Shown here piece after piece: positions 1 to 14,506 of a DNA stretch of 14,506 bases. Source of the stretch: a virus (lineage: Duplodnaviria; Heunggongvirae; Uroviricota; Caudoviricetes); IMG/VR virus record IMGVR_UViG_2778261446_000005, positions 1-14,506 of that record; one strand, given 5' to 3'. A model generated the notes under the pieces. The model was not told the origin of the DNA. It worked only from the letters and a program-made list of their open reading frames with translations, and did not search any database. Position numbers and translations under genes: made by a program. Every line of letters begins with the position of its first letter. Positions within the stretch are counted from its first letter, which is position 1.

Positions 1-192
1 TCAGGAGCATTTCTGATTAACGCCACCGTTAAGAATCCACCCCTCAACAGCTTCACGAAGGTATGATTTGGGGTGGGTTCTGACTGGCTTCGGAAATCCG
101 TGCCGTTTGGTATAGTTCCAGATTGTCTGACGTGATGAAACACCGAGCTTGTTCATCGCTTCTTTCTCAGGAATCAGACTGGTATCGGTCAT
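1..192 (-). CDS. xis: Excisionase-like / AlpA-family small DNA-binding protein (63 aa)
   Basis: Complete ORF with stop at 1..3. Translation has a helix-turn-helix-like core (LGVSSRQTIWNYTKRHGFPKP) typical of small phage excisionase/AlpA regulators. GGAGA Shine-Dalgarno 7 nt upstream of the ATG at 192. Sits at the left end of the leftward early operon, where xis lies in lambdoid phages (int would be beyond the window). Confidence 0.6.
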   Translation of the reverse strand: MTDTSLIPEKEAMNKLGVSSRQTIWNYTKRHGFPKPVRTHPKSYLREAVEGWILNGGVNQKCS

Positions 193-280
193 CTTAATTC
201 TCCAGGCAAAAAGAAACCGCCATATAGCGGCTCTATCAGATATGTACAGGCATCATCGAGTGTGAGGCGGCGTGATTTCA

Positions 281-514
281 TTATTTCCACTCTTCATGTT
301 TGTCAGTGAATGGTTTCTCCATCTCCATCTCTATTAATGCCTTATTCATCTCATTTCGTAACTCTATAGCCATCCTGACGGCTTCAACCTGTGCAGGATG
401 TTGGTTAATTGCTGGAGAATATCGTCGGGAGCGAAGGATTGAGAAAACAAAGATAATGCAAGCAACTATCTGAATTGCATTGCATATTATTGATACAATG
501 TGAATTGCAGCCAT
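281..514 (-). CDS. Small single-pass membrane protein, unknown function (77 aa)
   Basis: ORF from track. N-terminal hydrophobic stretch (IHIVSIICNAIQIVACIIFVFSIL) followed by a charged helical tail. G-rich SD upstream of the ATG at 514. Same strand as the operon. Confidence 0.5.
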   Translation of the reverse strand: MAAIHIVSIICNAIQIVACIIFVFSILRSRRYSPAINQHPAQVEAVRMAIELRNEMNKALIEMEMEKPFTDKHEEWK

Positions 515-526
515 CTGCTACCCCCC

Positions 527-550
527 AATAAAAAACCGCCATCAGGCGGC
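527..550 (-). terminator. Intrinsic terminator (minus strand), stop codon of the upstream gene inside the hairpin loop
   Basis: Minus strand reads GCCGCC-TGAT-GGCGG followed by TTTTTTTATT. Stem is plus 536..540 / 545..549, T-run is plus 527..535. Confidence 0.6.
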
Positions 551-709
551 TTGGTGTTCTTTCAGTTCTTCAATTCGAATATTGGTTACGTCTGCATGCG
601 CTATCTGCGCCCATATCATCCAGTGGTCATAGCAGTCGTTGATGTTCTCCGCTTCGATAACTCTGTTGAATGGTTCTCCATTCCATTCACCTGTGACTCG
701 GAAGTGCAT
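542..709 (-). CDS. Small hypothetical protein (55 aa, MHFRVTGEWNGEPF...EHQAA)
   Basis: Below the 60-aa cutoff of the ORF track; found by manual translation of the minus strand. ATG at 709..707, TGA at 544..542, immediately followed by the terminator. Codon usage looks like neighbouring genes. No clear SD. Confidence 0.4.
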   Translation of the reverse strand: MHFRVTGEWNGEPFNRVIEAENINDCYDHWMIWAQIAHADVTNIRIEELKEHQAA

Positions 710-1057
710 TTATCATCTCCATAAAACAAAACTAGCCGTAGCGAGTTCAGATAAAAGAAAACCCGCACTCGGCTGGTTCGCATTCGTTCAAATTGCGTTT
801 ACTTCTTGGCGTTCTGTTCATCCATATCGATATACCATGGGTTGCTTCCCTTGGGCATGTTTAACGACTGCTCGCGATAGTATCTGATGCGCTCCATGAA
901 ATACTCGCGTGAGTGCTCAGGTTGCTCTCATGATACCTGCTCAGTGATAACAGGTATGTTAAGGCGCTCTCTGTACTCCATGCCTGATGCTGCAAGGTCA
1001 ACGTTTACCTTGTTCTGTTTTTCTTTCGATTTCTCGGCGATGTTATGCCTGACATTG

Positions 1058-1300
1058 TCAACCCGCCTCCTTCTGAACATAACGGTTATAAATCAGTCCC
1101 TGAGGGCCATAAGGAAGCGGGATGTGCAACTCCTCTGGTTCAGAAACTATCCATTCCCCGGCCATCTCCGCTGGAGAGGTAATGATAAGTTGTTTGCTAA
1201 TAAAAGGACCACTCCTCTCAACAACAAGCTTACCATCTTCATTAATAAAAGCTTGGATGTCAGGTGTGATTCCACACTTGGTGATGCAGCGTTTGAACAT
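1058..1300 (-). CDS. Hypothetical protein (about 80 aa; ORF extends to 1342)
   Basis: Minus-strand ORF 1058..1342 from track. Internal ATG at 1300 (MFKRCITKCGITPDIQAF...) has a G-rich SD; the first ATG at 1342 has none. Composition is protein-like, unlike the overlapping plus-strand ORF 887..1345. Confidence 0.4.
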   Translation of the reverse strand: MFKRCITKCGITPDIQAFINEDGKLVVERSGPFISKQLIITSPAEMAGEWIVSEPEELHIPLPYGPQGLIYNRYVQKEAG

Positions 1301-1426
1301 TTTGTGTCCCCCCATTTTATGTACGGGGTAATTATAACACATTGAAATATAGTAATATTTGACGTAGATTTCTTTTGATCTATAAGCGATTTTTTAATGC
1401 TTTTAAGTTATAAATACTTGTTTTCA

Positions 1427-2035
1427 TCACCCATCTTGCTGCGGTGCTACTATTGAAAAGTACTCACACCCTTTAGCCCAAATAGTTTTGATAGTTGTCC
1501 AACTGACTGGAACCTTGATTTCGATTCTCCCGCTGCCGTCACAAGTTTCGCAATCATCATCACCAAAGCATTCCGGGCAGCTTATAAACGTAGTTTCTGA
1601 AAATTCACCGGATAGCACACCCTTAGCGCCGTTCTCAGCGGTTAGTTTCTTCGGCACTATAACCCAACCATCCGGAGTTACCGGAGAGTTGCCCGATGGC
1701 TCGTTCAACTTGCAAGTTTGGCTTACAGGTTTGGCTTCCAGTTCTGCTATGCGCTTTTTTGCTGCTTCCAACTCGCCAAGCAGCGCCAAGACGGTAGCCG
1801 GATTGGCTGCGGCGATGAATTCAGCATTGGCCTGCTGTTCCATTTGGAAATCTTCATCGAAACCGCTTTCTGGATGCGCTCCTTCAATTCTGCAAATGGG
1901 AAGATATCCAACAACGTCACGATGAATTAGCGCATCATCACAATTAAATCGGCTCTCTCCATATTCGAGCGACCACACACCACACGTTGCTTTCTCTGCC
2001 TTTTCACGCAGTGCCTGATAGTCAATCTTGCTCAT
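1427..2035 (-). CDS. Ead/Ea22-like family protein (202 aa)
   Basis: Translation contains the motif ...FIAAANPATVLALLGELEAAKKRIAELEA that I recall as characteristic of ead/Ea22-like prophage proteins; C-terminal Cys-rich region (CPECFGDDDCETCDGSG). ATGA start/stop overlap with the upstream gene at 2032..2035. Confidence 0.5.
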   Translation of the reverse strand: MSKIDYQALREKAEKATCGVWSLEYGESRFNCDDALIHRDVVGYLPICRIEGAHPESGFDEDFQMEQQANAEFIAAANPATVLALLGELEAAKKRIAELEAKPVSQTCKLNEPSGNSPVTPDGWVIVPKKLTAENGAKGVLSGEFSETTFISCPECFGDDDCETCDGSGRIEIKVPVSWTTIKTIWAKGCEYFSIVAPQQDG

Positions 2036-2289
2036 TGGTCAGCCTCCTGGCGAAACATCATGATTGTCAGATCGCCTTTGGTTGCAAGGCGCACGGTTGT
2101 TCCTGGTTCGATGCTGGACAGGTCAAACGCATCGTAAAATTCATTTACTGCTTTTTGTCTACGAGACAGCCTTCTGCGTTTGTCCCATTGCTTTAGCGCA
2201 ACGGAGATAAACCACTGTCCCGTTTTGAACATGATGAATAACCACCCCATCAGGGCGAGTCCGGTGTTTAGAATGCCCAGAATGCTCAT
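2032..2289 (-). CDS. Small membrane protein, unknown function (85 aa)
   Basis: ORF from track. N-terminal hydrophobic helix (ILGILNTGLALMGWLFIMF) then a basic segment (KRRRLSRRQK). ATGA overlap with the upstream gene at 2286..2289. Confidence 0.5.
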   Translation of the reverse strand: MSILGILNTGLALMGWLFIMFKTGQWFISVALKQWDKRRRLSRRQKAVNEFYDAFDLSSIEPGTTVRLATKGDLTIMMFRQEADQ

Positions 2290-2660
2290 GACTGCACTCC
2301 CTTGCGAAGCTGGTCGGCTAACTCGTCACATATGTGCGTCAAAGAGCAAAGTTTGATTGATGGATGTTCTCGCATCATCTCCACACCCTGCGCACGTACT
2401 TCAGCCAGAAAAGCGTCGGTGGCTGGGGTTTCCGTGAAGTTGTCCTCCCAACCGTAGTACTCCTGACGACAGAAGTTATTAAATTCCTTCTCCGACTGTT
2501 TAAGCGCCGCATTCTCCGCTGCCAGCGCCGCGCACTTGGCCTCCGCTTCAGCAAATTTACGCACCAGATATTCAGCGTTTGTTTCGTTAACCTTTAAATC
2601 TCGTGGGATGCATTTACCTTTCAGAAAACCATCCATCTCAATTAGTGACATTTGTTTCAT
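2286..2660 (-). CDS. Hypothetical protein with predicted coiled-coil segment (124 aa)
   Basis: ORF from track. ATGA overlap with the upstream gene at 2657..2660. Contains [24 protein letters not shown]. No family recognised. Confidence 0.5.
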
Positions 2661-2821
2661 TTCTTCCCACTCCGCAGCATCGCATTCAGATATTTGTTTT
2701 GATTCACTGATGGAAACGAGTTTCTCTTAAGCAATTCCTCTCTCGATGGCATTGGCTTTACGCGTTGGCGAATAATCATTTCTGCCGGAAGAATGCCGGG
2801 ATTGTATGCAAGTCCTCTCAT
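2657..2821 (-). CDS. Small hypothetical protein (54 aa; track ORF runs to 2974)
   Basis: Track ORF 2657..2974 overlaps the upstream 98-aa gene out of frame. Internal ATG at 2821 is preceded by GAGGA at 7 nt spacing and lies just downstream of the 98-aa gene stop (2832..2834), so I take the short form ([33 protein letters not shown]...). Confidence 0.4.
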
Positions 2822-2831
2822 GGTAAATTCC

Positions 2832-3128
2832 TCAGTCATTACTGATAGCGCCATAGCGTGAGCGGTAATTACGCAGGCGCGGGTCGATATATTCAGGGAA
2901 GTGGGTATATGTGGCTTTGCGGAATGGTCGGATTGATGTCTGGTAAATTCGCTCTCGTTCTTCTTTCTCTGCAAGCCATATACAGTGGCGAAATTCCTTT
3001 TCCTCTTTCGTTTCCTGCGGTAGCGACATTATCAGGTCGTAGTTTTTTCTGAATTTATCCAGCACCTCCGATACGGAATTGCCGGAACAGCGGCGCGGGT
3101 CATCCGCACCATACAGAGGCGCTGGCAT
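2832..3128 (-). CDS. Hypothetical protein (98 aa); possibly an Abc-type anti-RecBCD protein by position and size only
   Basis: ORF from track, AAGGAT SD upstream of ATG at 3128. Sits just downstream of erf-ssb, where P22 carries abc1/abc2; I cannot confirm sequence similarity from memory. Confidence 0.45.
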
Positions 3129-3151
3129 AATGGAATCCTTATTTTGCTAAT

Positions 3152-3535
3152 CTAGAATGGAATTGAATCGTCGTATTCAGGATGATTTTGATGATTGCTA
3201 CTTTGCTGCTGTTGGCTGTTTCCTGAAGCTGCAAATCCAATCTTCGCATTCAGTAATTCAAGAGTGATTGATTGACCATTTTGCCCCTGATAAACATCAA
3301 CCCTGATGTTTTCTCCGGTAATTTCTACAATGCCACCTTCAACAAGAACACTACGGTAGTAATCCGCTTGCGCTCCCGGCTTGGCAAATACAACGGCGCT
3401 GTAGTTTGTCCATTCTTTCTTTTTTGTCTGGCGATCGTAATACTGAACGCCAGCACGGATGTTGAATCCGATATTTTCCCCGGCCTGAAACTCTCTTGCG
3501 GGTTTGTTTAGTCTTACAGTAATCGAATGTGCCAT
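3152..3535 (-). CDS. ssb: Phage single-stranded DNA-binding protein (SSB-like, 127 aa)
   Basis: Internal ATG at 3535 (M31 of track ORF 3152..3625) overlaps the erf stop as TAATG. C-terminus ends ...PEYDDSIPF, the acidic D-D-x-I-P-F tail of bacterial SSBs. Gln/Ser-rich linker before the tail. Confidence 0.6.
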   Translation of the reverse strand: MAHSITVRLNKPAREFQAGENIGFNIRAGVQYYDRQTKKKEWTNYSAVVFAKPGAQADYYRSVLVEGGIVEITGENIRVDVYQGQNGQSITLELLNAKIGFAASGNSQQQQSSNHQNHPEYDDSIPF

Positions 3536-4140
3536 TAAGCAGCCGCTCCTTCTAATTCGTCTCGTCTGATGTTGTAAACGTCCTGCGCTTTGTGCTGCTC
3601 CGGTGTGCCTTCGAGCATCTTCCACGCTTTGGCGAACGCCTGTTTAAGCTCTTCTACGGTGTTTTTCTGCAATGCTGCGTCAGTGAATGCTTTTAGAACC
3701 TGTTCAGGTGTAGGTGATGGTTTTGATTGCTTTGCTGCTGCGTTCTGCTGATGTTTATGCTCGTCGGTATCTGCATCTTTCGCATCATCAATGCCGAACA
3801 AACCATTGAGGCAATACTTGCGTGCATAAGAGCTTGTAGCTCCAGTAACTTGTGCAGAATCCATTCCTTTCTTGCTTTCTTCCTCTCGTGCAAGAGCGGT
3901 TGCCGTATGACTGTTTTCGCCATCGGTAATAGTTGCCGTGGCTTTCACGTAATACCGATCACCAATCAACACAACTTCATCGCTGATTGATAAAAACAGA
4001 CCATTCAGTAACGGCTTAACGCCTTCAAGAATGTCTTCGCAGCTTCTGTATTTATATTTACCGAATGAGTTGTACTGATTCTTTGGCGCATTCAGATTCT
4101 CCTGAATGGCTGCCAGTCTTGCGTAAAATTCTTTGCTCAT
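3535..4140 (-). CDS. erf: Erf-family single-strand annealing recombinase (P22 Erf-like, 201 aa)
   Basis: Translation from the ATG at 4140 begins MSKEFYARLAAIQENLNAPKNQYNSFGKYKYRSCEDILEGVKPLL..., matching my recollection of P22 Erf. Track ORF 3535..4170 begins at an upstream TTG. C-terminal third diverges, as expected for mosaic Erf tails. Confidence 0.8.
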   Translation of the reverse strand: MSKEFYARLAAIQENLNAPKNQYNSFGKYKYRSCEDILEGVKPLLNGLFLSISDEVVLIGDRYYVKATATITDGENSHTATALAREEESKKGMDSAQVTGATSSYARKYCLNGLFGIDDAKDADTDEHKHQQNAAAKQSKPSPTPEQVLKAFTDAALQKNTVEELKQAFAKAWKMLEGTPEQHKAQDVYNIRRDELEGAAA

Positions 4141-4150
4141 ATGTTTGTTC

Positions 4151-4321
4151 TCAGAATGGACATTCCCCAAGGAAATAACGCTGATTTAATACTTCGACTC
4201 GGGACAAATTAAGGCATACCCGCATTCCTTCGCGGTCGCCATTATGGCGATACCAGAGAGCTTTCTGCGTGTACATGCGTCTCTGTAACTTGCTCTCCTT
4301 CACTGTGGTTGCAAGTGACAT
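4151..4321 (-). CDS. Small basic protein (56 aa), arf-like by position
   Basis: Manual translation. ATG at 4321 with strong AAGGAGA SD; stop TGA at 4153..4151, 11 nt before the erf start. MSLATTVKESKLQRRMYTQKALWYRHNG... Lies where P22 has arf, but identity is not verified. Confidence 0.4.
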   Translation of the reverse strand: MSLATTVKESKLQRRMYTQKALWYRHNGDREGMRVCLNLSRVEVLNQRYFLGECPF

Positions 4322-4400
4322 GAATATCTCCTTCGTTGCCGATTAAATCTTTCATCTGACGAATGAATTCTTCGTCTGACCAGTTATCTGTGAAACTCAT
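4242..4400 (-). CDS. Small acidic ORF (52 aa), overlaps the 4151..4321 ORF in another frame
   Basis: Manual translation. ATG at 4400 overlaps the kil-like stop as ATGA, with AGGA SD. MSFTDNWSDEEFIRQMKDLIGNEGD... Overlaps the next ORF by 80 nt, so one of the two may be non-coding. Confidence 0.3.
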   Translation of the reverse strand: MSFTDNWSDEEFIRQMKDLIGNEGDIHVTCNHSEGEQVTETHVHAESSLVSP

Positions 4401-4549
4401 TTCCTGCGATACCACGGAAGGTTGATAGCTGATTTCATCGCTTTATTTGCTTCAAGCCACATTTTTGAATCACCAATAAATCGGGCTATTACTGCTTTGT
4501 TCTGTGCAGCACGAAGCATCTGGTGATTGATGGCTATTTCATTGCGCAT
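4397..4549 (-). CDS. kil: Kil-like small host-killing protein (FtsZ inhibitor family, 50 aa)
   Basis: Manual translation MRNEIAINHQMLRAAQNKAVIARFIGDSKMWLEANKAMKSAINLPWYRRK. The motif IA-FIGD-KM matches what I recall of lambda Kil. GAGG SD. Directly downstream of cIII, as in lambda and P22. Confidence 0.55.
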   Translation of the reverse strand: MRNEIAINHQMLRAAQNKAVIARFIGDSKMWLEANKAMKSAINLPWYRRK

Positions 4550-4665
4550 AATAAGACCTCAACTCTTTTCCATCCGTCACGTAATTTACGGGTGATTCGT
4601 TCAAGTAAAGATTCATTTAGTTGGAAGGCACCCATGCGAGCGCCTCCCGCGATTGCGTAAATCAT
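4534..4665 (-). CDS. cIII: CIII-like protease (FtsH) inhibitor (43 aa)
   Basis: Manual translation MIYAIAGGARMGAFQLNESLLERITRKLRDGWKRVEVLLCAMK. The ESLLERITRKLRDGWKR core matches the lambda CIII amphipathic helix. AAGGAA SD upstream of ATG at 4665. Confidence 0.85.
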   Translation of the reverse strand: MIYAIAGGARMGAFQLNESLLERITRKLRDGWKRVEVLLCAMK

Positions 4666-4689
4666 GGGTGGTTCCTTATGTTGGTTTTA

Positions 4690-5658
4690 TTAGTAGGTTA
4701 TTTTTGTTGCGAATACTTCGCCTTTTACGATGGCTGTTATGATATTTTTAGCAACATCTTCTGATGCGCCAACCTTGATAAGGTCAGCAAGTATTTTGTT
4801 ATTTACTTCTTTCCGGTGAGCTTTATCCTTTGCTCTACGCTCTTCTTCGTCCTTGATTCTTTTTTCTTCTGCTATTCTGGCTTGCTCTTTTTCTTCAGCC
4901 TCGCGCCGGATTCGTTCTGCCTCCTCCTGTGCTTTTCGGCGTTCTGCTTCAATTGCTGCCTGCTTTTCTCTTTCAGCTCGTTCTGCTGCCTCTTTTGCTT
5001 CGCGCTGTGCTCGTCGCTCGGCTTCAATGCGTTCACGCTCTGCACGTTCCGCTGCGGCCTTAGCTTCTGCTTCTCGCCTTGCTGCTGCTTCAATTTCGGC
5101 TTTTGCCTTTGCTTCGGCTTCTGCTCTGGCTTTCTCTTCAGCTTCTTTTTTTAAGCGTTCTTCATGCTCTCGCTTTTCCTGCTCCGCTTTGAGTCTTGCC
5201 TCTTCTCTTTGGCGGTCAAATTCGCGATCCATCAAAATCGCTATTTCATGGTCAGACTCAATTTGCTTTGCGAGAGCTTCAGCTGCTGCCTTAGCTTCTT
5301 CTTCGGCTTTAATCCGTGCCTGTTCCTCCTCATAATCAGTAAGAGGCTGGCGCGCCTTGGCTTTCAGTTCATCAAGGCGATCGCGCACTGTCTTGCGGTT
5401 GGCATCAATTAGCTTTGGAATTTCCTTCAGTTCAGCAACAAGGTCTTTGCCAAGACCATCGAGATATGTTTTCGTCTGCGCAACTTTATACGCCAGAGAA
5501 GCGATCTCCTTTCTGCCCTTTGCCGTTGTGATATCAGGCACAAAGGACATAACTTCACGTTCAACCTTTTGGAGAATTTCTTCAATCTGGTCGGCAGACT
5601 GAAATACAGTCATTGCATTTGCTTTTTCAATAACAACTAAATCTGTTACTTCACTCAT
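4690..5658 (-). CDS. Unknown protein (322 aa): about 110-aa N-terminal domain, about 170-aa Glu/Ala/Lys/Arg-rich predicted single alpha-helix or coiled coil, about 40-aa C-terminal domain
   Basis: Track ORF 4690..5754; I place the start at the ATG at 5658 (MSEVTDLVVIEK...) because it is 7 nt after a GGAGG SD and directly after an intrinsic terminator. Central region is repetitive EAK/ERA-type sequence (e.g. EEKARAEAEAKAKAEIEAAARREAEAKAAAERAERERIEAERRAQREAKEAAERAEREKQAAIEAERRK). Confidence 0.7.
   Translation of the reverse strand: MSEVTDLVVIEKANAMTVFQSADQIEEILQKVEREVMSFVPDITTAKGRKEIASLAYKVAQTKTYLDGLGKDLVAELKEIPKLIDANRKTVRDRLDELKAKARQPLTDYEEEQARIKAEEEAKAAAEALAKQIESDHEIAILMDREFDRQREEARLKAEQEKREHEERLKKEAEEKARAEAEAKAKAEIEAAARREAEAKAAAERAERERIEAERRAQREAKEAAERAEREKQAAIEAERRKAQEEAERIRREAEEKEQARIAEEKRIKDEEERRAKDKAHRKEVNNKILADLIKVGASEDVAKNIITAIVKGEVFATKITY
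4850..5340 (-). repeat. Low-complexity coding repeat encoding the E/A/K/R-rich helix
   Basis: Plus strand is pyrimidine-rich with reiterated gcttc/tgctgc/ctcttc units. It generates two spurious plus-strand ORFs (4816..5154, 4853..5335) rich in Cys/Ser/Phe/Leu. Confidence 0.6.
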
Positions 5659-5670
5659 ATATCCTCCATC

Positions 5671-5700
5671 AAAAAAAATTGCCCTCACACGGGAGGGCAA
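5671..5700 (-). terminator. Intrinsic terminator (minus strand) immediately upstream of the ER/K-rich gene
   Basis: Minus strand reads TTGCCCTC-CCGTGT-GAGGGCAA followed by TTTTTTTT (plus 5671..5678 is the A-run). Not followed by a T-run on the plus strand, so it is strand-specific. Confidence 0.7.
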
Positions 5701-5791
5701 AGAAGATTTCCAATAATCAGAACAAGTCGGCTCCTGTTTAGTTACGAGCGACATTGCTCACATAGCAGACTCGTAAATCTGCTATAGGCGC

Positions 5792-5950
5792 TTATTCGCA
5801 TCGCATGACAACATCAAATTTTTCGAGATTACTTTGTCGCAACAATCCTTCTTCGACGCGGTCAGCTTTTCTATAATTATCAAATTCGAAATGTTTAATT
5901 ACTTCTTTCGTTTCTCGATCTATAACTTCAACAATGTATTTCTTATTCAT
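5792..5950 (-). CDS. Small hypothetical protein (52 aa, MNKKYIVEVIDRETKEVIKHFEF...)
   Basis: Manual translation; below the ORF-track cutoff. ATG at 5950..5948 overlaps the upstream gene stop (TAATG). Stop TAA at 5794..5792. Confidence 0.45.
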   Translation of the reverse strand: MNKKYIVEVIDRETKEVIKHFEFDNYRKADRVEEGLLRQSNLEKFDVVMRCE

Positions 5951-6246
5951 TACTCATCACCTATGGCTTTTCTGATTGCTGCGAGACCTTTATTAACAGC
6001 TCCATACCATTCTGGATATGTTGTCGTTGTTCTATTTTTGGATTGCTTAAGTAATAACTGAAGTGCTTCGAGAAGGTCAGGTGCTGCCGCTATTAGATTG
6101 GCATCTTCAATGCATTGAACTTCCTCACAGATTGCAATATACGAACGCCAGCCTGCGCCATTTTCAAGTGAGTCTGCCTGGATGATTTTAATCTCATCGC
6201 CATCCATCATTATTTCCCATTTACCTTCAGTACCTTTAAATTCCAT
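5950..6246 (-). CDS. Hypothetical protein (98 aa) with an Ea22-like IAAAP-LLEAL motif
   Basis: Track ORF 5950..6270; start moved to the ATG at 6246 (MEFKGTEGKWEIMMDGDEIKII...), which has a CAGAGG SD at 7 nt. Contains ...NLIAAAPDLLEALQLLLKQ, resembling the motif in the 1427..2035 protein. Confidence 0.5.
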   Translation of the reverse strand: MEFKGTEGKWEIMMDGDEIKIIQADSLENGAGWRSYIAICEEVQCIEDANLIAAAPDLLEALQLLLKQSKNRTTTTYPEWYGAVNKGLAAIRKAIGDE

Positions 6247-6268
6247 GTTAGCCTCTGTTGTTAGTGCC

Positions 6269-6294
6269 AAAAATAAAGGCCACCATCAGGCAGC
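6269..6294 (-). terminator. Probable intrinsic terminator (minus strand), stop codon of the upstream gene in the loop
   Basis: Minus strand reads GCTGCC-TGAT-GGTGGC followed by CTTTATTTTT. The 6-bp stem needs two G-U pairs that exist only in the minus-strand RNA. Same architecture as the 527..550 terminator. Confidence 0.45.
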
Positions 6295-6537
6295 CTTGTT
6301 GTAAATGTTGCAGGTATCAAGTAAGTAATTAGATGGAGCGCCATAAATTATGAATTCATCGTTTGTAGGGTCAATCTCCATCTCTTGGCCTATTGCCATT
6401 CTTGCGTCAGTGTCATCAGCGGCGAAGCATAAAACAGCCCACGCCCCCATTGTTTTAAAAAGAACTGCAATTGGCTGTGGTTTTACTGAATTTGCGTTAG
6501 CGCGAAAATCACAAATCGCACTTTCATGAAATTCCAT
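6286..6537 (-). CDS. Hypothetical protein (83 aa)
   Basis: ORF from track. GAGGTGA SD upstream of ATG at 6537. MEFHESAICDFRANANSVKPQPIAVLFKTMGAWAVL... No family recognised. Confidence 0.5.
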   Translation of the reverse strand: MEFHESAICDFRANANSVKPQPIAVLFKTMGAWAVLCFAADDTDARMAIGQEMEIDPTNDEFIIYGAPSNYLLDTCNIYNKAA

Positions 6538-6653
6538 ATCTCACCTCAATCGTAATAAGCTGGAATTGATTTTCCGCGTTGCTTCTGGCGGCCTGAACAG
6601 GTCACACCCATTTCACTGTGTGGCTTGCTGTAATAAATTCGGTTAGTTCAGAC

Positions 6654-6676
6654 AATAAAAAACCCACCGAAGTGGG
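6654..6676 (-). terminator. Intrinsic terminator within the early-left operon (tL1-like)
   Basis: Minus strand reads CCCAC-TTCG-GTGGG followed by TTTTTTATT, starting immediately after the TAG stop (6679..6677) of the first gene downstream of N. Confidence 0.7.
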
Positions 6677-7015
6677 CTATGACCATTTTTTATTTGGATT
6701 TCGTTGGTGAGCGTGATTAACAACTCTGTGCATTACATCCTCATATTTTTCATCTTCAATTTTTTCGACATCGCGAGGAAATGGTGTTGCTAATGCTTTG
6801 TCAACTTTGTCCATTGGGTCTTCATTAATCTTATATTCAGGACCGTCATCTATAGCATTAAATCCAGGTGTTACACCGTTTTTTAATGCATATGCTATCC
6901 TCTTTTCCCATCTCGCTATTCTCCTCCTGTCTCGAGATGTAAGACCTCTATCAGATACTTTTCTGTTTTGTCCGCGGTCAGGATTAACATAAATAGTCTT
7001 TTTCACCATAAGCAT
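6677..7015 (-). CDS. Hypothetical basic/acidic protein, first gene downstream of N (about 110 aa)
   Basis: Track ORF 6677..7021 begins at a TTG; ATGs at 7015 and 7009 are the likely starts (MLMVKKTIYVNPDRGQNRKVSDRG...). No SD, 2 nt after the N stop, suggesting translational coupling. Occupies the slot lambda uses for ral. Confidence 0.5.
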   Translation of the reverse strand: MLMVKKTIYVNPDRGQNRKVSDRGLTSRDRRRIARWEKRIAYALKNGVTPGFNAIDDGPEYKINEDPMDKVDKALATPFPRDVEKIEDEKYEDVMHRVVNHAHQRNPNKKWS

Positions 7016-7017
7016 AC

Positions 7018-7323
7018 TCAATAAGCACCGTACGGTAGTTTACTGTACAATTTTATTTTTTGGACTGCATGTATTTTGTTTCCTAACGGGTTTGAATCTT
7101 TGTAATAAATACTTCTATTTTTTCGAACGACTTCTTCTTTCTTCTTGCAGCAAAGGCTTCCTAGTGATGCTGCTTTGTCTGCTCTGACGCAACCAGAGAG
7201 CTTTAGCGCAATTTTTCGCGCCAGTGCTTCATTACTGCGTCGCTCGGCAATAAGTTCTGCTCTGCGAGCTTTGTAGCGGCTTTTTGCCGTACCTTTGGAT
7301 TCTTTCCAGACAATGGTTACCAT
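7018..7323 (-). CDS. N: Antitermination protein N, phage phi21 type (101 aa)
   Basis: Translation from the ATG at 7323 begins MVTIVWKESKGTAKSRYKARRAELIAERR, the arginine-rich motif I recall for the phi21 N boxB-binding peptide. AAGGAGA SD 6 nt upstream. The in-frame ATG at 7353 has no SD. Located just downstream of pL and nutL. Confidence 0.85.
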   Translation of the reverse strand: MVTIVWKESKGTAKSRYKARRAELIAERRSNEALARKIALKLSGCVRADKAASLGSLCCKKKEEVVRKNRSIYYKDSNPLGNKIHAVQKIKLYSKLPYGAY

Positions 7324-7433
7324 GATGGTCTCCTTTAAGTGGCTTTGGCGCATGACGCGTCGAGGTGCTTATCTTCTCGATCGCTGTCTTGCAGCTGCAA
7401 TTCGCGCCATCCCCAAAACCACTCAAGTTCTGG

Positions 7434-7474
7434 TCTCAACGGTTAGGTTGAGAGTCCGTCGATGTTAAAGAGCC
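7434..7474 (-). promoter_or_regulatory. nutL: boxA (7464..7474) and boxB hairpin (7434..7453)
   Basis: Minus strand reads GCTCTTTAACA (boxA consensus) then, 10 nt later, TCTCAAC-CTAACC-GTTGAGA (7-bp stem, 6-nt loop). The loop CUAACC is shared with the nutR hairpin at 8584..8601. Confidence 0.7.
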
Positions 7475-7514
7475 TGCCAATCTGTTCCGTTTGGCTTCCA
7501 GCGTCCTGCTGATG

Positions 7515-7580
7515 GCTTAAATTTAAGACTTCTTAATTTATTGGTCAAGTGCATTTTTGAAGAAAACTTAATTTTATGGG
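7515..7580 (-). promoter_or_regulatory. pL promoter with OL operator sites
   Basis: Minus strand has TTGACC (plus 7543..7548), a 17-nt spacer and TAAATT (plus 7520..7525). Overlapping palindromic P22-type operator half-sites AATTAAGAAGTCTTAAATT, and a second AATTAAG...CTTCAAAA site upstream of the -35. Confidence 0.6.
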
Positions 7581-7613
7581 CGTGAATTTAGTTTATCCTT
7601 GATTTTTAACGGG

Positions 7614-7637
7614 AAATAAAAAAGGGGCGAAAGCCCC
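7614..7637 (-). terminator. Intrinsic terminator immediately after the c2 stop
   Basis: Minus strand reads GGGGC-TTTC-GCCCC followed by TTTTTATTTCCC. The c2 stop TAA is at 7640..7638. No T-run follows the hairpin on the plus strand. Confidence 0.75.
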
Positions 7638-8288
7638 TTAAGGAAGGTTTGCTAGCTTGGCATCAACGACAACGCCAATGATTTTACAGTTCCCATTGAT
7701 TTCAATCATTGGGTATTGTGGATTGAGTGGTTTCAGGAATTTTCTACCGGCATCAATAACTAACTTTTTGAATGTCGCCTCGTTTTCTCCTTCAAGTTTG
7801 GCGACTACCAGCTTTCCATTACGTGGTTCGACTTCTGGGTCGACGAGAATAATCATCCCCTCAGGAATACTCAGTCCTGCCGGGGCAGTCATTGAATCGC
7901 CTTTAACGTCGAGCCAAAAAGAGTCTTCAGAACAATCTACCGTTGTGTCGTACCAGTTATCTATTGCACGCCTATGATATGGCTCTACAGCTTCCATCCA
8001 ACATCCTGCGCTTACCCAACTAATTAGAGGATACGAACCTCTTGGATCATGCCTGCTGTGATAGGCAATGTTTGAAAGACTATCCTCTCCTTTCAACAGG
8101 TAATCAGGGGAGCACTGCAAAGCCTTGGCTAAGGCCAATAGGTTTTCGCCATTGGGCTCAGTTTCAGATCGCTCCCATTGGGAAATAGCAACATTAGACA
8201 CGCCAACCATCTTGCCAAGGGCAGCCTGCCTAATCTTGAGTTCTTTTCTGCGAGCGCGAATACGCTCACCCATCAGTTGTGTATTCAT
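7638..8288 (-). CDS. c2: Prophage repressor, P22 c2 type (CI-like, HTH plus LexA-like S24 autocleavage domain, 216 aa)
   Basis: Translation MNTQLMGERIRARRKELKIRQAALGKMVGVSNVAISQWERSETEPNGENLLALAKALQCSPDYLL... matches my recollection of P22 C2 almost throughout. C-terminal domain has the G-D-S-M and K-L motifs of RecA-cleavable repressors. Divergently oriented to cro. Confidence 0.9.
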   Translation of the reverse strand: MNTQLMGERIRARRKELKIRQAALGKMVGVSNVAISQWERSETEPNGENLLALAKALQCSPDYLLKGEDSLSNIAYHSRHDPRGSYPLISWVSAGCWMEAVEPYHRRAIDNWYDTTVDCSEDSFWLDVKGDSMTAPAGLSIPEGMIILVDPEVEPRNGKLVVAKLEGENEATFKKLVIDAGRKFLKPLNPQYPMIEINGNCKIIGVVVDAKLANLP

Positions 8289-8360
8289 AGTTAAGACATC
8301 TTAAATAAACTTGACTTAAGATTCCTTTGGTGGATAATTTAAGTGTTCTTTAATTTCGGA
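8289..8360. promoter_or_regulatory. OR operator region with pR (rightward) and pRM (leftward)
   Basis: Three P22-type operator palindromes: AGTTAAGACATCTTAAAT (about 8290..8307), CTTAAGATTCCTTTGG, and ATTTAAGTGTTCTTTAAT (about 8337..8354). pR -35 TTGACT at 8311..8316 and -10 GATAAT at 8333..8338. c2 ATG at 8288 abuts the leftmost operator (leaderless-type arrangement). Confidence 0.7.
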
Positions 8361-8368
8361 GCGAGTCT

Positions 8369-8554
8369 ATGTACAAAAAAGATGTTATTGACCACTTCGG
8401 AACCCAGCGTGCTGTTGCTAAAGCACTAGGCATTAGCGATGCAGCAGTCTCTCAGTGGAAAGAAGTTATCCCAGAGAAAGACGCCTATCGATTGGAAATC
8501 GTTACAGCTGGCGCCCTGAAGTATCAAGAAAGTGCTTACCGCCAAGCGGCATAA
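8369..8554 (+). CDS. cro: Cro repressor, P22 type (61 aa)
   Basis: Translation MYKKDVIDHFGTQRAVAKALGISDAAVSQWKEVIPEKDAYRLEIVTAGALKYQESAYRQAA matches my recollection of P22 Cro. GGAG SD upstream. Confidence 0.85.
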   Translation: MYKKDVIDHFGTQRAVAKALGISDAAVSQWKEVIPEKDAYRLEIVTAGALKYQESAYRQAA

Positions 8555-8560
8555 GCAAAT

Positions 8561-8601
8561 TGCTCTTTAACAGTTCTGGCCTTTCACCTCTAACCGGGTG
8601 A
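8561..8601 (+). promoter_or_regulatory. nutR: boxA (8561..8572) and boxB hairpin (8584..8601)
   Basis: TGCTCTTTAACA matches the boxA consensus. Eleven nt later, TCACC-TCTAACCG-GGTGA forms a hairpin (alternatively CACCU-CUAACC-GGGUG with a G-U pair), sharing the CUAACC loop with nutL. Confidence 0.7.
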
Positions 8602-8669
8602 GCAAACATCAGCGGCAAATCCATTGGGTGTGCCGCTATAACTCAATATCAATATAGGAAAATTAACAA

Positions 8670-8966
8670 ATGGCACAAGCAAGCTACAGCAAGCCAACAC
8701 AGCGAGAAATTGATCGCGCTGAAACTGATTTACTCATCAACCTGTCAACGCTTACCCAGCGCGGTCTGGCAAAGATGATTGGCTGTCATGAATCGAAGAT
8801 AAGCAGAACGGACTGGAGATTTATTGCTTCGGTTCTGTGTGCTTTCGGAATGGCATCAGACATCAGTCCGATTAGCAGGGCTTTTAAGTATGCGCTTGAT
8901 GGACTCGCAAAGAAAAAATCCCCGGCTGCCACCGAGGATTCTGAGCAAATTGATATGCAATTCTGA
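8670..8966 (+). CDS. cII: CII-like transcriptional activator (98 aa)
   Basis: Same architecture as lambda CII; C-terminus KKKSPAATEDSEQIDMQF resembles lambda KKRPAATERSEQIQMEF. AGGAAA SD upstream. Position between cro/nutR and O. Confidence 0.75.
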   Translation: MAQASYSKPTQREIDRAETDLLINLSTLTQRGLAKMIGCHESKISRTDWRFIASVLCAFGMASDISPISRAFKYALDGLAKKKSPAATEDSEQIDMQF

Positions 8967-8989
8967 GGTCATTACTGGATCAATCCACA
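8908..8989 (-). ncRNA. Candidate oop-like antisense RNA overlapping the 3' end of cII
   Basis: Minus strand has a terminator inside the cII 3' end: TCCTCGG-TGGCA-CCGGGGA (7-bp stem with one G-U pair, pairs only in the minus-strand RNA) followed by TTTTTTCTTT (plus A-run 8912..8918). About 80 nt upstream on the minus strand is a -10-like CATAAT (plus 8996..9001) with a weak -35. Size and position mirror lambda oop. The 5' end is inferred. Confidence 0.45.
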
Positions 8990-8998
8990 GGAGTAATT

Positions 8999-9160
8999 AT
9001 GACAAAACGTCGTAAGAAATACCAGGAAAAAGAAGAGATTCGACACCCTGATTCACCTGAGGGATTAGTGGTAGCCGCAGCAAATAACAGGGCGTTCGCA
9101 GAGCGCCTTGTTGGTGTTTACAGACTAGCCAAAGCAGGAGTGAAACATGGGCGTCGTTAA
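8999..9160 (+). CDS. Small basic ORF between cII and O (53 aa, MTKRRKKYQEKEEIRHPDSPEGL...)
   Basis: Manual translation. AGGAG SD 6 nt upstream of the ATG. Stop overlaps the O start by 14 nt. Below the track cutoff. Confidence 0.35.
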   Translation: MTKRRKKYQEKEEIRHPDSPEGLVVAAANNRAFAERLVGVYRLAKAGVKHGRR

Positions 9161-9977
9161 GTTAGCTGATTACAGGCCTCAACTGGAGGTCGTGGAGCAT
9201 CGCGTGGCAGAACTCGAAGATGGCTACACTCGGACTGCAAACACACTGTTAGAAGCCGCCATGCTTTCTGGACTTACTCTACATCAGTTACTGATTGTTA
9301 TGGCTGTGTGGCGCAAGACATACGGTTACAACAAAAAAATAGATTGGATCGGAAACGAACAGTTCGCTGAACTCACTGGCATGGCACCAACCAAATGCTC
9401 TACCGCCAAAAACGAGCTTATCAGAATGGGAGTTCTCATTCAGGTGGGGCGTCAAGTTGGTATGAATACAAACATTTCCGAGTGGAAAACGAAAGTTAAC
9501 GGATTCGGTAAAACATTTACTAATTCGGTAAAACAAACCTTCACCAAATCGGTAAAAAGCAATTTACCGAATCAGTCAAACACAAAAGACAATATACAAA
9601 AGACAATAAATACAAATACCCCCTTACCCCCTAACGGGGGCGGCGATGGGCAGGTTAAACCTGAACGTCGCAAGGCAGAACGAATCGACTACGAATCCTT
9701 CCTGAACGCCTACAACACCGAAGTCGGTGACAGACTTCCACACGCTGTTGCGGTCAACGAGAAACGCAAACGCCGCCTGAAGAAAATCATCCCGCAACTG
9801 AAAACGCCAAACGTGGACGGTTTCAGAGCGTATGTCAGGGCGTTTGTACATCAGGCCAAGCCGTTTTACTTCGGAGACAACGACACTGGCTGGACGGCAG
9901 ATTTTGATTACCTGCTGAGGGAAGATTCGTTAACGGGAGTACGGGAAGGGAAGTTTGCAGACAGGGGGATTGCATGA
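9147..9977 (+). CDS. Replication initiator, lambda O-like (P22 gene 18 type, 276 aa)
   Basis: N-terminal domain is clearly homologous to lambda O as I recall it ([15 protein letters not shown] vs LDDGYARLSNMLLEA; WRKTYGYNK; NISEW). AGGAG SD. Contains the iteron origin internally. C-terminal domain differs from lambda O, consistent with pairing to a DnaB-type helicase rather than lambda P. Confidence 0.8.
9500..9640 (+). repeat. Replication origin inside the O-like gene: iterons, AT-rich region, GC hairpin
   Basis: Three direct copies of (A/T)TCGGTAAAA(C/A) at about 9503..9514, 9523..9534 and 9548..9559, plus an inverted TTACCGAAT at 9564..9572. AT-rich tract 9577..9620. Then CCCCC-TAAC-GGGGG at 9627..9640. 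Layout parallels lambda ori. Confidence 0.7.
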
Positions 9978-11350
9978 GACAGGATATCGAAGCGAGCGTT
10001 ATCGGTGGCCTGCTGATTGGTGGATTAACTCCAACCGCCAGCGACGTTCTGGCAACGCTGGAGCCGGAAGCGTTTTCAATTCCGCTCTACCGGAAAGCCT
10101 TCGAGGTTATCCGCAAGCAGGCGAGAAACAGAAACCTAATCGATGCGCTGATGGTTGCCGAGGCGTGCGGAGAGGAGCATTTCACGTCAATCCTGATGAC
10201 CAGCAAAAACTGCCCGAGTGCCGCAAACCTGAAGGGATATGCCGGAATGGTCGCGGATAACTATCACCGCCGTCTGGTGCTGGAAATCATAGATGAAATG
10301 CGTGAACCAATCCAAAGCGGAACCATCGACGCATCGAGTCAGGCGATGGATGAACTTGTAAAACGTCTCTCAGCCATCAGAAAACCCCGTGACGAGGTTA
10401 AACCTGTACGGTTAGGGGAAATCATCACCGACTACACTGACACGCTTGACAGGCGTCTGAGGAACGGAGAAGAGTCCGATACCCTGAAGACCGGAATCGA
10501 AGAACTTGATGCCATCACCGGAGGGATGAACGCGGAAGACCTGGTGATAATCGCTGCTCGTCCTGGTATGGGGAAAACCGAACTGGCGCTGAAGATTGCC
10601 GAAGGCGTTGCAAGCCGCGTTATTCCTGGTTCTGACGTCCGGCGCGGGGTATTGATTTTCTCAATGGAAATGAGCGCATTGCAGATTGCAGAGCGAAGCA
10701 TTGCCAACGCCGGGAGGATGTCGGTTAGTGTGCTGCGAAATCCTGCAGCGATGGATGACGAAGGCTGGGCGCGCGTTGCTAACGGCATGAGTCAGCTTGC
10801 AGATTTGGATGTATGGGTAGTCGATGCCTCGCGGTTATCGGTAGAAGAAATTCGCTCAATCGCAGAACGGCACAAACAGGAAAATCCAAACCTGTCACTC
10901 ATCATGGCGGATTATCTTGGCCTGATTGAGAAGCCGAAAGCAGATCGCAACGACCTCGCAATTGCTCACATCTCCGGAAGCCTGAAGGCGATGGCGAAAG
11001 ACCTGAAAACGCCCGTTATCTCCCTGAGTCAGCTTTCGCGCGATGTTGAGAAGCGACCAAACAAACGCCCGACAAACGCAGATTTGCGTGATTCAGGAAG
11101 CATTGAGCAGGACGCAGACTCAATCATCATGCTCTATCGGGAAGCGGTATATGACGAGAACAGTAGCGCCGCGCCATTTGCTGAAATCATCGTGACGAAA
11201 AACCGTTTTGGCTCGCTTGGTACAGTTTACCAGCGGTTCTGTAACGGACACTTTGTTGCATGTGACCAGGATGAAGCCAGACAGATTTGCACAGCATCAA
11301 ATGCACCTGCTGCGCGTGGCAGACGATATGCACAAGGGGCTGACGTATGA
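9974..11350 (+). CDS. DnaB-family replicative helicase (P22 gene 12 type, 458 aa)
   Basis: ATGA overlap with the O-like gene. N-terminal DnaB-like domain; Walker A motif in [15 protein letters not shown]; RecA-like C-terminal domain with the DnaB-type [12 protein letters not shown] and IIMLYRE motifs. Confidence 0.85.
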
Positions 11351-11375
11351 CCATCTACATCACTGAGCTAATAAC

Positions 11376-11407
11376 AGGCCTGCTGGTAATCGCAGGCCTT
11401 TTTATTT
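11376..11407 (+). terminator. Intrinsic terminator between the helicase and ninB (tR2-like)
   Basis: AGGCCTGC-TGGTAATC-GCAGGCCT (8-bp stem) followed by TTTTTATTT. Same position as lambda tR2, upstream of the nin region. Confidence 0.8.
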
Positions 11408-11423
11408 GGGGGAGAGGGAAGTC

Positions 11424-11864
11424 ATGAAAAAACTAACCTTTGAAATTCGATCTCCAGCACATCAGCAAAACGCTATTCACGCGGTACAGCAAATTCTTCC
11501 AGACCCAACCAAACCAATCGTAGTAACCATTCAGGAACGCAACCGCAGCTTAGACCAGAATCGAAAGCTTTGGGCTTGCCTTGGTGACGTCTCTCGTCAG
11601 GTTGAATGGCATGGTCGCTGGCTGGATGCAGAAAGCTGGAAGTGTGTGTTTACCGCAGCATTAAAGCAGCAGGATGTTGTTCCTAACCTTGCCGGGAATG
11701 GCTTTGTGGTAATAGGCCAGTCAACCAGCAGGATGCGTGTAAGCGAATTTGCGGAGCTATTAGAGCTTATACAGGCATTCGGTACAGAGCGTGGCGTTAA
11801 GTGGTCAGACGAAGCGCGACTGGCTCTCGAATGGAAAGCGAGATGGGGAGACAGGGCGGCATGA
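11424..11864 (+). CDS. ninB: NinB (Orf-family recombination mediator)
   Basis: Translation from the ATG at 11424 ([53 protein letters not shown]...) matches my recollection of lambda NinB. Track ORF starts 6 codons upstream. Confidence 0.85.
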
Positions 11865-12037
11865 GACGACAGCGACGAAGTATCACCGACATAATCTGTG
11901 AAAACTGCAAATACCTTCCAACGAAACGCTCCAGAAATAAACGCAAGCAAATCCCAAAAGAATCTGACGTAAAAACCTTCAACTACACGGCTCACCTGTG
12001 GGATATCCGGTGGCTAAGACATCGTGCGAGGAAATGA
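11861..12037 (+). CDS. ninD: NinD (58 aa, zinc-ribbon-like small protein)
   Basis: ATGA overlap with nin[59 protein letters not shown] matches my recollection of lambda NinD. Track ORF starts upstream, inside ninB. Confidence 0.75.
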
Positions 12038-12039
12038 CA

Positions 12040-12402
12040 ATGGATTATTCACAGTTAAGTGATTTTGAAATTAACTTAAAAATCGCGCATATCGTGCTAG
12101 GAAAAAACAATTACGACTGGGATCCAGAAAAGAAAGAAGTTTGCTTAGCTGGAATTGATGGTGGTGAGTTTTTGCCTTGTGGATATTTCGACCCATGTAA
12201 TAGGGCCGCTGACGCATATCCGATCATCACTGAAAACAAAATTAGCACCATGTGGATGACAGCGGAAAAAGAATGGTGCGCATGGTCAGGAGGTGATTTA
12301 GAGGAAGGTTGTTGGGTTCCTGACTACTGCTTCTGCGGTGAATCGCCTCTCCGCGCAGCCATGATTGTATTTCTAATGATGCAGGTCGCTAATAATGCTT
12401 AG
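12040..12402 (+). CDS. Cys-rich nin-region protein (about 120 aa), possibly NinX-like
   Basis: Track ORF 11998..12402; likely start is the ATG at 12040 (MDYSQLSDFEINLK...), 8 nt after GAGGA. Occupies the position of lambda ninE but is larger and Cys/Trp-rich. The NinX name is a low-confidence recollection. Confidence 0.5.
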   Translation: MDYSQLSDFEINLKIAHIVLGKNNYDWDPEKKEVCLAGIDGGEFLPCGYFDPCNRAADAYPIITENKISTMWMTAEKEWCAWSGGDLEEGCWVPDYCFCGESPLRAAMIVFLMMQVANNA

Positions 12403-12571
12403 CCCATCCCAAACCCTTCAATACCAGAAAGAAAGCGTCGAGCGAGCTTTAACGTGCGCTAACTGCGGTCAGAAGCTGCATGTGCTGGAAGTTCACGTGT
12501 GCTCAGATTGCTGCGCAGAACTGATGAGCGATCCGAATAGCTCAATGTACGAGGAAGAAGATGATGGCTAA
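12395..12571 (+). CDS. ninF: NinF (58 aa)
   Basis: Manual translation [58 protein letters not shown], matching my recollection of lambda NinF. Overlaps the upstream stop; below the ORF-track cutoff. Confidence 0.7.
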
Positions 12572-13175
12572 ACCAGCGCGAAGACGATGTAAAAACGATG
12601 AATGCCGGGAATGGTTTCACCCTGCATTCGCTAATCAGTGGTGGTGCTCTCCAGAGTGTGGAACCAAGATAGCACTCGAACGACGAAGCAAAGAACGCGA
12701 AAAAGCGGAAAAAGCAGCAGAGAAGAAACGACGACGAGAGGATCAGAAACAGAAAGATAAACTTAAGATTCGAAAACTCGCCTTAAAGCCCCGCAGTTAC
12801 TGGATTAAACAAGCCCAACAAGCCGTAAACGCCTTCATCAGAGAAAGAGACCGCGACTTACCATGTATCTCATGCGGAACGATCACGTCTGCTCAGTGGG
12901 ATGCCGGACATTACCGGACAACTGCTGCGGCACCTCAACTCCGATTTGATGAACGCAATATTCACAAGCAATGCGTGGTGTGCAACCAGCACAAAAGCGG
13001 AAATCTCGTTCCGTATCGCGTCGAACTGATTAGCCGTATCGGGCAGGAAGCAGTAGACGAAATCGAATCAAACCATAACCGCCATCGCTGGACTGTCGAA
13101 GAGTGCAAGGCGATCAAGGCAGAGTACCAACAGAAACTCAAAGACCTGCGAAATAGCAGAAGTGAGGCCGCATGA
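12561..13175 (+). CDS. ninG: NinG / Rap (recombination-promoting structure-specific endonuclease)
   Basis: Translation [42 protein letters not shown]... matches my recollection of lambda NinG. Overlaps the ninF stop. Confidence 0.85.
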
Positions 13176-13378
13176 CGTTCTCAGTAAAAACCATTCCAGA
13201 CATGCTCGTTGAAGCATACGGAAACCAGACAGAAGTAGCACGCAGACTGAAATGTAGTCGCGGTACGGTCAGAAAATACGTTGATGATAAAGACGGGAAA
13301 ATGCACGCCATCGTCAACGACGTTCTTATGGTTCATCGCGGATGGAGTGAAAGAGATGCGCTATTACGAAAGAATTGA
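13172..13378 (+). CDS. ninH: NinH (68 aa)
   Basis: ATGA overlap with nin[69 protein letters not shown] matches lambda NinH as I recall it. Confidence 0.8.
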
Positions 13379-14027: not shown

Positions 14028-14506
14028 GAGAACTAAACCTCACCAAAGAGCAGCACGAGTGGCTGAATGGCTGGCTTGAACTGTGGGGCGCATGGGTTTA
14101 TTCAGGTCGTCTGGAAAAGCGCATGAGCAGCGTAATAGCGAAGTTCATGGAGAGCGTAGAGCCGGGAAGAGTTATGACAAGGCCAATGTGTAATGATGAT
14201 GATGGAATGTTGATTTCTCAGGTCGTCGATTCCGTCATGTACATTGACAAGAAAGCCTTTGGCATCCTCCTCAGCTACTACGCCCACGGCTCTTCCAAGC
14301 ACGCCATTGCATCTTACTATCATCGCGTCGCAAGACCTCGCAAGATGTTATGCCGGGGCGGCGGGCGCATTCAAAAACCATCGCTCGCAACCTGTCGACG
14401 GGAAGTTGACGAAATCCTCAATGCCTCGTTGTTTATGATTTACCCGGTTCTGGATAGTGCGTTTAAAAACCGGAAACGTGTAGAGAAAATTAAACATGTA
14501 GCATAG
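14018..14506 (+). CDS. Q: Late-gene antiterminator Q (non-lambda Q family, about 162 aa)
   Basis: Immediately downstream of the nin cluster, where Q lies in lambdoid phages. Size and the W-x-GAW and C-x-DDD-M motifs resemble the phi21/82-type Q proteins as far as I recall. Start is a GTG at 14018 overlapping ninI by 10 nt; no in-frame ATG nearby. Stop coincides with the window end. Confidence 0.55.

Follow-up and report, generated by a model that had tools for sequence, protein, structure and literature searches.

Two overlapping small ORFs between phage kil and erf: a probable mosaic junction with a single selected frame in the overlap

The interval between kil and erf in a 14,506-nucleotide stretch of tailed-phage DNA (IMG/VR record IMGVR_UViG_2778261446_000005, positions 1 to 14,506; here called the window) carries on its minus strand an acidic 52-residue ORF (ORF A) and a basic 56-residue ORF (ORF B), which overlap out of frame by 80 nt. 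We think it likely that these are two separate small genes that became joined at a lambdoid mosaic junction, with B being a bona fide gene and the tail of A a tolerated, unconstrained read-through into it. The evidence comes from the arrangement of the interval in this and related phages, from the resemblance of the first half of A to the P22 Arf protein, from the occurrence of B without A, and from the pattern of selection in the two reading frames.

Results

Layout of the kil-erf interval

The gene order, 5' to 3' on the minus strand, is cIII, kil, A, B, erf and then a gene for a 127-aa protein, whose ATG shares one base with the erf stop (Table 1). A previous sequence-only reading of this DNA had described two small ORFs in different frames with an 80-nt overlap between kil and erf, the acidic one ATGA-coupled to kil and the basic one preceded by a strong Shine-Dalgarno sequence, and this description holds in each respect: the ATG of A overlaps the TGA stop of kil as ATGA, and AAGGAG is found 6 nt before the ATG of B (AGGAG at 4332-4328 in a motif scan). 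It had also put the end of B at 11 nt before erf, whereas the spacer is 10 nt (4150-4141), a trivial counting difference. The B frame is +1 relative to that of A, and the B Shine-Dalgarno sequence is kept as GAAGGAG in the diverged loci L093, L108 and L005. The stop codon of A is 101 nt from the erf ATG, and it is B, not A, that abuts erf. The computed ORF list starts A earlier, at a GTG at 4415. Upstream of cIII there is a 354-aa ORF (4690-5754, minus strand) that includes an extended repeat-like stretch, highly charged and rich in Ala, Glu, Lys and Arg; its RefSeq label is 'TolA' or 'coiled-coil domain-containing protein', and Sf6 gp33 goes under the name D3 Orf53-like.

Table 1. Features of the kil-erf interval and its flanks in the window
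Feature	Position	Strand	Evidence
cIII	4665-4534	minus	Pfam Lambda_CIII
kil, 50 aa	4397..4549	minus	Pfam Lambda_Kil, E 1.7e-20; phrog_2055, E 1.2e-35
ORF A, 52 aa, net charge -9	4242..4400	minus	phrog_2123, E 1e-41
ORF A start and stop	ATG at 4400; stop 4244-4242	minus	sequence
ORF A codons 1-26, non-overlapping; Arf N-terminal module (MSFTDNWSDEEFIRQMKDLIGNEG)	4323..4400	minus	hhalign, BLASTP, codon phase
A/B overlap, 80 nt; A codons 27-52 plus stop, B codons 1-27	4242..4321	minus	sequence
B Shine-Dalgarno sequence AAGGAGA, within A codons 23-25	4327..4333	minus	sequence, motif scan
ORF B, 56 aa, net charge +5	4151..4321	minus	phrog_1723, E 4.5e-35
ORF B start and stop	ATG at 4321; stop 4153-4151 (TGA)	minus	sequence
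Spacer between B stop and erf ATG, 10 nt	4141..4150	minus	sequence
erf, 201 aa, single-strand annealing protein	3535..4140	minus	Pfam ERF, E 2.1e-44

Prior annotation and distribution of the two ORFs

The feature is already known, being annotated in several reference phages and in PHROGs. Each ORF has a full-length match to a PHROG family, with residues 1-52 of A falling on profile positions 1-52 of 52 and residues 1-56 of B covering its family profile from end to end, which indicates that both are more than chance ORFs; in the family alignments, the C-terminal pattern of phrog_1723 (...E-x-[LI]-N-[QS]-[RK]-Y-F-L-G-x-x-P-F) is present in B. The 801 bp around the pair match 329 phage records, and HK97, CUS-3 and Sf6, which were inspected, all annotate two overlapping ORFs at this place. 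The counterparts of A and B are, respectively, gp42.1 and gp42 in HK97, gp30 and gp29 in Sf6, ECRS218_0052 and ECRS218_0053 in CUS-3, and UTI89_C2684 and UTI89_C2685 in UTI89, where C2684 and C2685 are listed as two genes between kil2 and erf. All four carry this ORF pair, 95-98% identical at the DNA level and in the same position between kil and erf, annotated as overlapping hypothetical proteins.

A 270-nt segment of this region is present in 1105 of 5426 complete E. coli genomes. For NZ_CP027342.1 (L118), which carries a 100% identical copy, RefSeq/PGAP annotates nothing in the 256-nt kil-erf interval (locus 1215-1470), and for NZ_AP046545.1, the one other E. coli copy inspected, it annotates B alone (WP_000050554.1). 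PHROGs attach the label 'recombinase' to both phrog_1723 and phrog_2123, and this has been carried into RefSeq phage annotation; neither the sequence nor the structure prediction nor the literature searched supports it, for A or for B, and it has probably spread from the neighboring erf gene. One source gives the name 'accessory recombination function protein' to a 61-aa variant of A (P0046, 88% identical). Searches of Pfam and NCBIfam, and a profile search of 1.84 billion proteins, gave no functional handle on either ORF, and a literature search gave no mention of gp42.1, of phrog_1723 or of A or B peptide sequences.

ORF A resembles the N-terminal half of P22 Arf

P22 Arf is a 47-residue protein (MQHEFSDEEFIALIS...) known as the accessory recombination function and defined genetically, by stimulation of Erf-dependent recombination (Poteete et al. 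1991, cited in PMC12315714); that 2025 survey of lambdoid Rec modules itself says of Arf only that its function is unknown. The basic ORF lies where P22 has arf, and the sequence-only reading accordingly offered it as the counterpart, to be checked by alignment. That alignment reverses the assignment: B gives no BLASTP alignment with Arf at E ≤ 100 and no match to the Arf family phrog_2445, and it is the acidic A, directly following kil, that matches Arf instead. A family-to-family comparison of A with Arf (hhalign) has a probability of 92.5% and an E-value of 4.7e-7 over 23 columns, aligning residues 4-26 of A with residues 2-24 of Arf, and A alone matches phrog_2445 at E 0.011. An Arf homologue from a Klebsiella phage (MSAAEKWNDDEFIQLMSDAIGE...) bridges P22 Arf and A, aligning with the A protein of an Enterobacter phage (L005) over residues 1-27 (BLASTP E 2e-7). 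Like P22 Arf, A is a small acidic protein whose gene comes next after kil in a recombination module of the Erf type, and A contains the N-terminal module of phrog_2445, [FW]-[SN]-D-[DE]-E-F-I...I-G/E, within which [FW]SDEEFI is common to both proteins.

The homology stops at about residue 26, exactly where the overlap with B starts. The conserved C-terminal half of P22 Arf (ERQNPVISWDEFAG) is missing from A, including the block NL-AERQNP-I-WDEFAG that is invariant in the Arf alignment, and A has instead an unconserved tail derived from the alternative frame of B. The two also differ downstream, in that P22 arf (1869-2012 in L004) fills the gap between kil and erf and is ATGA-coupled to erf (1255-1872), whereas A is not coupled to erf. 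Judged by these comparisons, A is best described as an Arf N-terminal module with an apparently replaced 3' half, which differs from members of the Arf family in the C-terminal block and in erf coupling.

The Arf N-terminal module is seen with three different C-termini, namely that of P22 Arf, the tail of A, and a short acidic tail in HK140 (L112, JQ086370), where an unannotated 35-aa ORF at 1501-1608 consists of the Arf/A module followed by that tail, MSFTDNWSDEEFIRQM-NKMLNQHKEQEKDDDSDSE (MSFTDNWSDEEFIRQMNKMLNQHKEQEKDDDSDSE). The HK140 ORF starts at an ATGA junction with a cIII-like gene and runs 23 nt into the next gene (103 aa); it belongs to a RecT-type module, in which it precedes the RecT gene, and no B adjoins it. 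A itself keeps the ATGA junction at its start whether the gene before it is kil or cIII-like. The length of A is 52, 54 or 56 aa across lineages, reflecting a shifting stop position. We also note that the A variants P0033 and P0051 have two or three tandem in-frame copies of EFIRQMK within the Arf-like module, arising from a 21-nt duplication that keeps the frame.

ORF B, an independent gene linked to strand-annealing genes

The distribution of B homologues shows B to be an independent, conserved gene. Among homologues with 37-80% identity, what precedes B takes five forms. In the E. coli types, the Salmonella-like L108, Pseudocitrobacter L105/L089 and the Enterobacter phage L005, B follows A and both frames are open. 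B comes straight after kil in L007 and straight after a cIII-like gene in L120, and in L008 it follows a gap of 75 nt. In the Erwinia-type phages (L006, L098-L104), a 49-aa ORF unrelated to A is ATGA-coupled to B. Homologues with identities as low as 37-48% are found as lone genes that lack frame A. We considered whether the 49-aa ORF of the Erwinia-type phages, which has the motif DFDFIRAL, is a distant homologue of Arf or A, and rejected this on hhalign probabilities of 0.9% and 0.2%. The family of B is small, with 20 representative clusters among 1.84 billion proteins, and the excerpted text of the 2025 survey (PMC12315714) contains no mention of B. An AlphaFold2 model of B is a two-helix hairpin (pLDDT 81.6), and fold searches with it against PDB and BFVD returned generic helical-hairpin matches only (best E 0.4-1.3).

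The downstream context of B is far more uniform. In all 110 loci with a readable downstream gene, that gene starts 1-12 nt after the B stop; it is of the ERF type in 58, the Rad52_Rad22 type in 41 and the AAA_24/Sak4 type in 10, with an HNH gene followed by erf in the remaining one, such that in 109 of the 110 B directly precedes a gene for a strand-annealing protein from one of three Pfam families. The spacing from B to erf is kept at 8-10 nt in 57 ERF-type loci. The 10-nt spacer of the window contains no good Shine-Dalgarno sequence for the erf start, and initiation of erf is therefore probably coupled to termination of B. B probably acts with the recombination module.

Most of the strand-annealing proteins encoded next to B carry the same swappable C-terminal domain of about 55 aa (encoded at 3538-3705 in the window, 2376-2540 in L006 and ~2220-2384 in L093). 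The RecT protein of HK140 (L112) has it too, at ~2640-2790. The Erf version is 51% identical to that of a Sak4-like AAA_24 protein (E 1e-15), and matches a Rad52-like protein at E 2e-9, P22 Erf at E 1e-11 and HK140 RecT at E 2e-5. Exchange of this C-terminal module between annealing proteins is the known 'Erf domain swap' (PMC2629481). As a separate observation, each examined locus with the shared module also has an Arf-module ORF, B, or both, upstream.

Selection across the overlap is seen in frame B alone

The segment from the A start to the B stop was collected from 91 loci, comprising 59 unique E. coli-type sequences and three diverged lineages. For the 59 unique E. coli-type sequences, minimum mutation counts were sorted by codon phase (A1=B3, A2=B1 and A3=B2, in that order) and compared by chi-square. 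In the part of A outside the overlap the counts are 2, 5 and 13 (p 0.006), with most changes at the third positions of A; in the overlap they are 9, 5 and 1 (p 0.034), the third positions of A being the least variable sites there; and in the part of B outside the overlap they are 25, 9 and 8 (p 0.002). Pairwise Nei-Gojobori estimates among the window, L093, L108 and L005 give dN/dS values of 0.17-0.32 for frame A in the A-only segment, 0.06-0.23 for frame B in the B-only segment and 0.18-0.58 for frame B in the overlap. Frame A in the overlap has values of 1.4-6.3 and is not distinguishable from control off-frames (0.8-4.3). A and B occur together in 93 loci; every one of these has an intact B and 91 have an intact A, and the other two (L105/L089) have no ATG at the A position.

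The sequence-only reading had left the choice between a genuine dual-coding segment and expression of only one ORF, and the data fall between the two. Both ORFs are probably translated, as judged from coding selection outside the overlap and from homology, and the overlap is constrained in frame B alone. The synonymous-site and conservation analysis that it proposed thus finds frame B selected across the overlap, but frame A behaving there as an off-frame would. Stops in one frame among relatives, which it had regarded as evidence against dual coding, do occur in frame A, but only in relatives that lack A altogether.

True dual coding, in which the 26-residue tail of A would be functional (for example as an acidic tail of the kind seen in Arf or SSB) and selection would maintain both frames over the 80 nt, is in our judgment unlikely. 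Some aspects of the data do lean toward it. Each of the five diverged overlap lineages has 26-30 open codons in the A frame, an outcome with a chance probability of 0.15-0.46 per lineage when B codons are resampled with the B protein and codon usage held; in B homologues without A, the same frame meets a stop within 20 codons in seven of ten, leaving it open in three. The difference is nominally significant (Fisher p 0.019), although the lineages share ancestry and are not independent, making this a weak statistic. The tails of A are consistently net acidic (-1 to -4), unlike the corresponding virtual frame of the controls (0 to +6), and DDDSDSE, the tail of the HK140 module, is acidic as well. 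Within the E. coli-level set, the third positions of B are also less variable in the overlap than outside it (9/25 versus 25/31, p 0.001), but we do not accept this as a sign of dual constraint; it is confounded by an HK022-type mosaic boundary within B, and is gone in the group with a 52-aa A (7/25 versus 13/31).

The remaining evidence runs against a functional tail. In addition to the off-frame dN/dS values, the low variability of A's third positions in the overlap runs contrary to expectation for a frame under selection. Identity between lineages is only 5-15 of 26 residues in the A tail, whereas B over the overlap keeps 10-19 of 25, and the A stop moves. Deeper divergence brings no slowing of the synonymous sites of B: with the three diverged lineages included, there are 34 B third-position changes over 25 sites in the overlap and 43 over 31 sites outside, which is an equal rate. 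Because the B third-position rate is the same inside and outside the overlap, and frame A behaves like the off-frames, the A tail imposes no measurable constraint. We therefore observe neither selection in both frames nor a depressed synonymous rate, either of which would mark functional dual coding. The open frame and its acidic charge hint, at most, at tolerance or selection at the level of composition, and not at a second coded function.

That A is simply spurious, an ORF open by chance between kil and B with B the only gene, is very improbable. Many E. coli genomes do have only B, or neither of the two, annotated by the RefSeq pipeline, no Pfam or NCBIfam family matches A, and in one locus (L032) there is a nonsense codon at A codon 8. 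Nonetheless, frame A is under purifying selection in its non-overlapping part, where 13 of 20 mutations fall at third positions and dN/dS is about 0.2; that part is a homologue of the N-terminal half of Arf, which in P22 is genetically defined; the ATGA junction at the start has been conserved with either of two upstream genes; and the EFIRQMK duplications of some variants are in frame.

Fused forms of A and B

In the HK97 record (L001, AF069529), the A and B parts are in one frame, whereas the window has the common two-frame arrangement. The HK97 segment at 1652-1903 contains two 1-nt insertions 7 nt apart (GTACACGCAG to GTCACACGCGAG, alignment columns 149 and 156), and gp42 and gp42.1 are in frame because of them; the first 43 residues of A and the last 36 of B are thereby placed in one 83-aa ORF (gp42.1), while B's own ATG leads into the third frame. 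These insertions are found only in HK97 records among the phage matches, and represent either a true mutation of the strain or an error of early sequencing. In a collection of 5.8 billion proteins there are at least eight A::B fusions of 81-82 aa (P0002, P0005, P0022, P0024, P0025, P0027, P0029 and P0067). Their frame switches fall at eight separate positions in the overlap, and a 1-nt deletion accounts for each; P0022 is recorded for 36 NCBI E. coli contigs. With both frames open, any 1-nt deletion in the overlap gives a fusion, and the fusions are therefore best read as sporadic mutations or assembly errors.

A scan of the overlap for programmed frameshift sites found a single AAA run and, in both frames, no X XXY YYZ slippery heptamer, and the context of the A stop differs between alleles and is not conserved. 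The predicted minimum free energy of RNA around the B ribosome-binding site is not different from that of shuffled sequences (z -0.99), giving no indication of a structure gating that site. Programmed frameshifting is unlikely. The idea that A and B are halves of one product, through a programmed +1 frameshift or a recent gene split that would make an 82-aa fusion like HK97 gp42.1, draws on these fused forms but is scarcely credible, given that each of them comes from a different indel, that their clusters have 1-4 members compared with 60-500 for the separate forms, and that B is equipped with a Shine-Dalgarno sequence and an ATG of its own and stands alone in many contexts.

Discussion

We favor an origin of the arrangement in the window by recombination between lambdoid modules. 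A recombination joint just upstream of the B ATG would have joined an arf-type gene to the B module, replacing the original 3' half of that gene with B, and A would be its remnant; B would have brought its own start codon, with its Shine-Dalgarno sequence now lying within the last non-overlapping codons of A. Ribosomes ending at kil may re-initiate at A through the ATGA junction and translate the Arf-like module. As there is no stop in the A frame at the joint, they would then read a further 26 codons out of frame into B, passing the B ribosome-binding site and the first 27 codons of B before ending at 4244-4242. B would be initiated independently from its own Shine-Dalgarno sequence, and ribosomes terminating at its TGA would be handed on to erf, 10 nt downstream. 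The 80 nt would thus be read in two frames, of which the B frame alone is shaped by selection, with the tail of A being a roughly acidic appendage. The overlap is accordingly an ordinary by-product of phage gene shuffling.

In classical overprinted genes of phages and other viruses, the embedded frame encodes a functional, selected protein. The A/B pair is like phiX174 D/E and lambda Rz/Rz1 in having two ORFs in different frames of one DNA stretch, but in those systems the embedded frame is selected and functional, whereas no selection at the residue level is seen in the part of A that overlaps B.

A broader and more speculative proposal concerns the role of B, and we put it forward tentatively, as one that we consider improbable. 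B (phrog_1723) could be an unrecognised accessory factor of phage homologous recombination, acting either via the shared C-terminal domain of the annealing proteins or by setting their translation level through coupling; the Arf module of A could be a second, independent partner of the same domain, with the tail of A kept open and acidic for that role.

The A/B overlap offers a worked example of how lambdoid module shuffling leaves a truncated gene reading into its new neighbor, and of how codon-phase analysis can separate a selected frame from one that is merely open. The HK97 and database fusions show that other arrangements of the same segment are viable. For annotation, the kil-erf interval of 256 nt is often left empty by RefSeq, though at least one well-conserved gene lies inside it, and a label of 'Arf-like (N-terminal module only)', if used, belongs on the acidic ORF and not on the basic one. 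The more useful lead is B, a small conserved gene tied to the 5' end of strand-annealing genes of three Pfam families.
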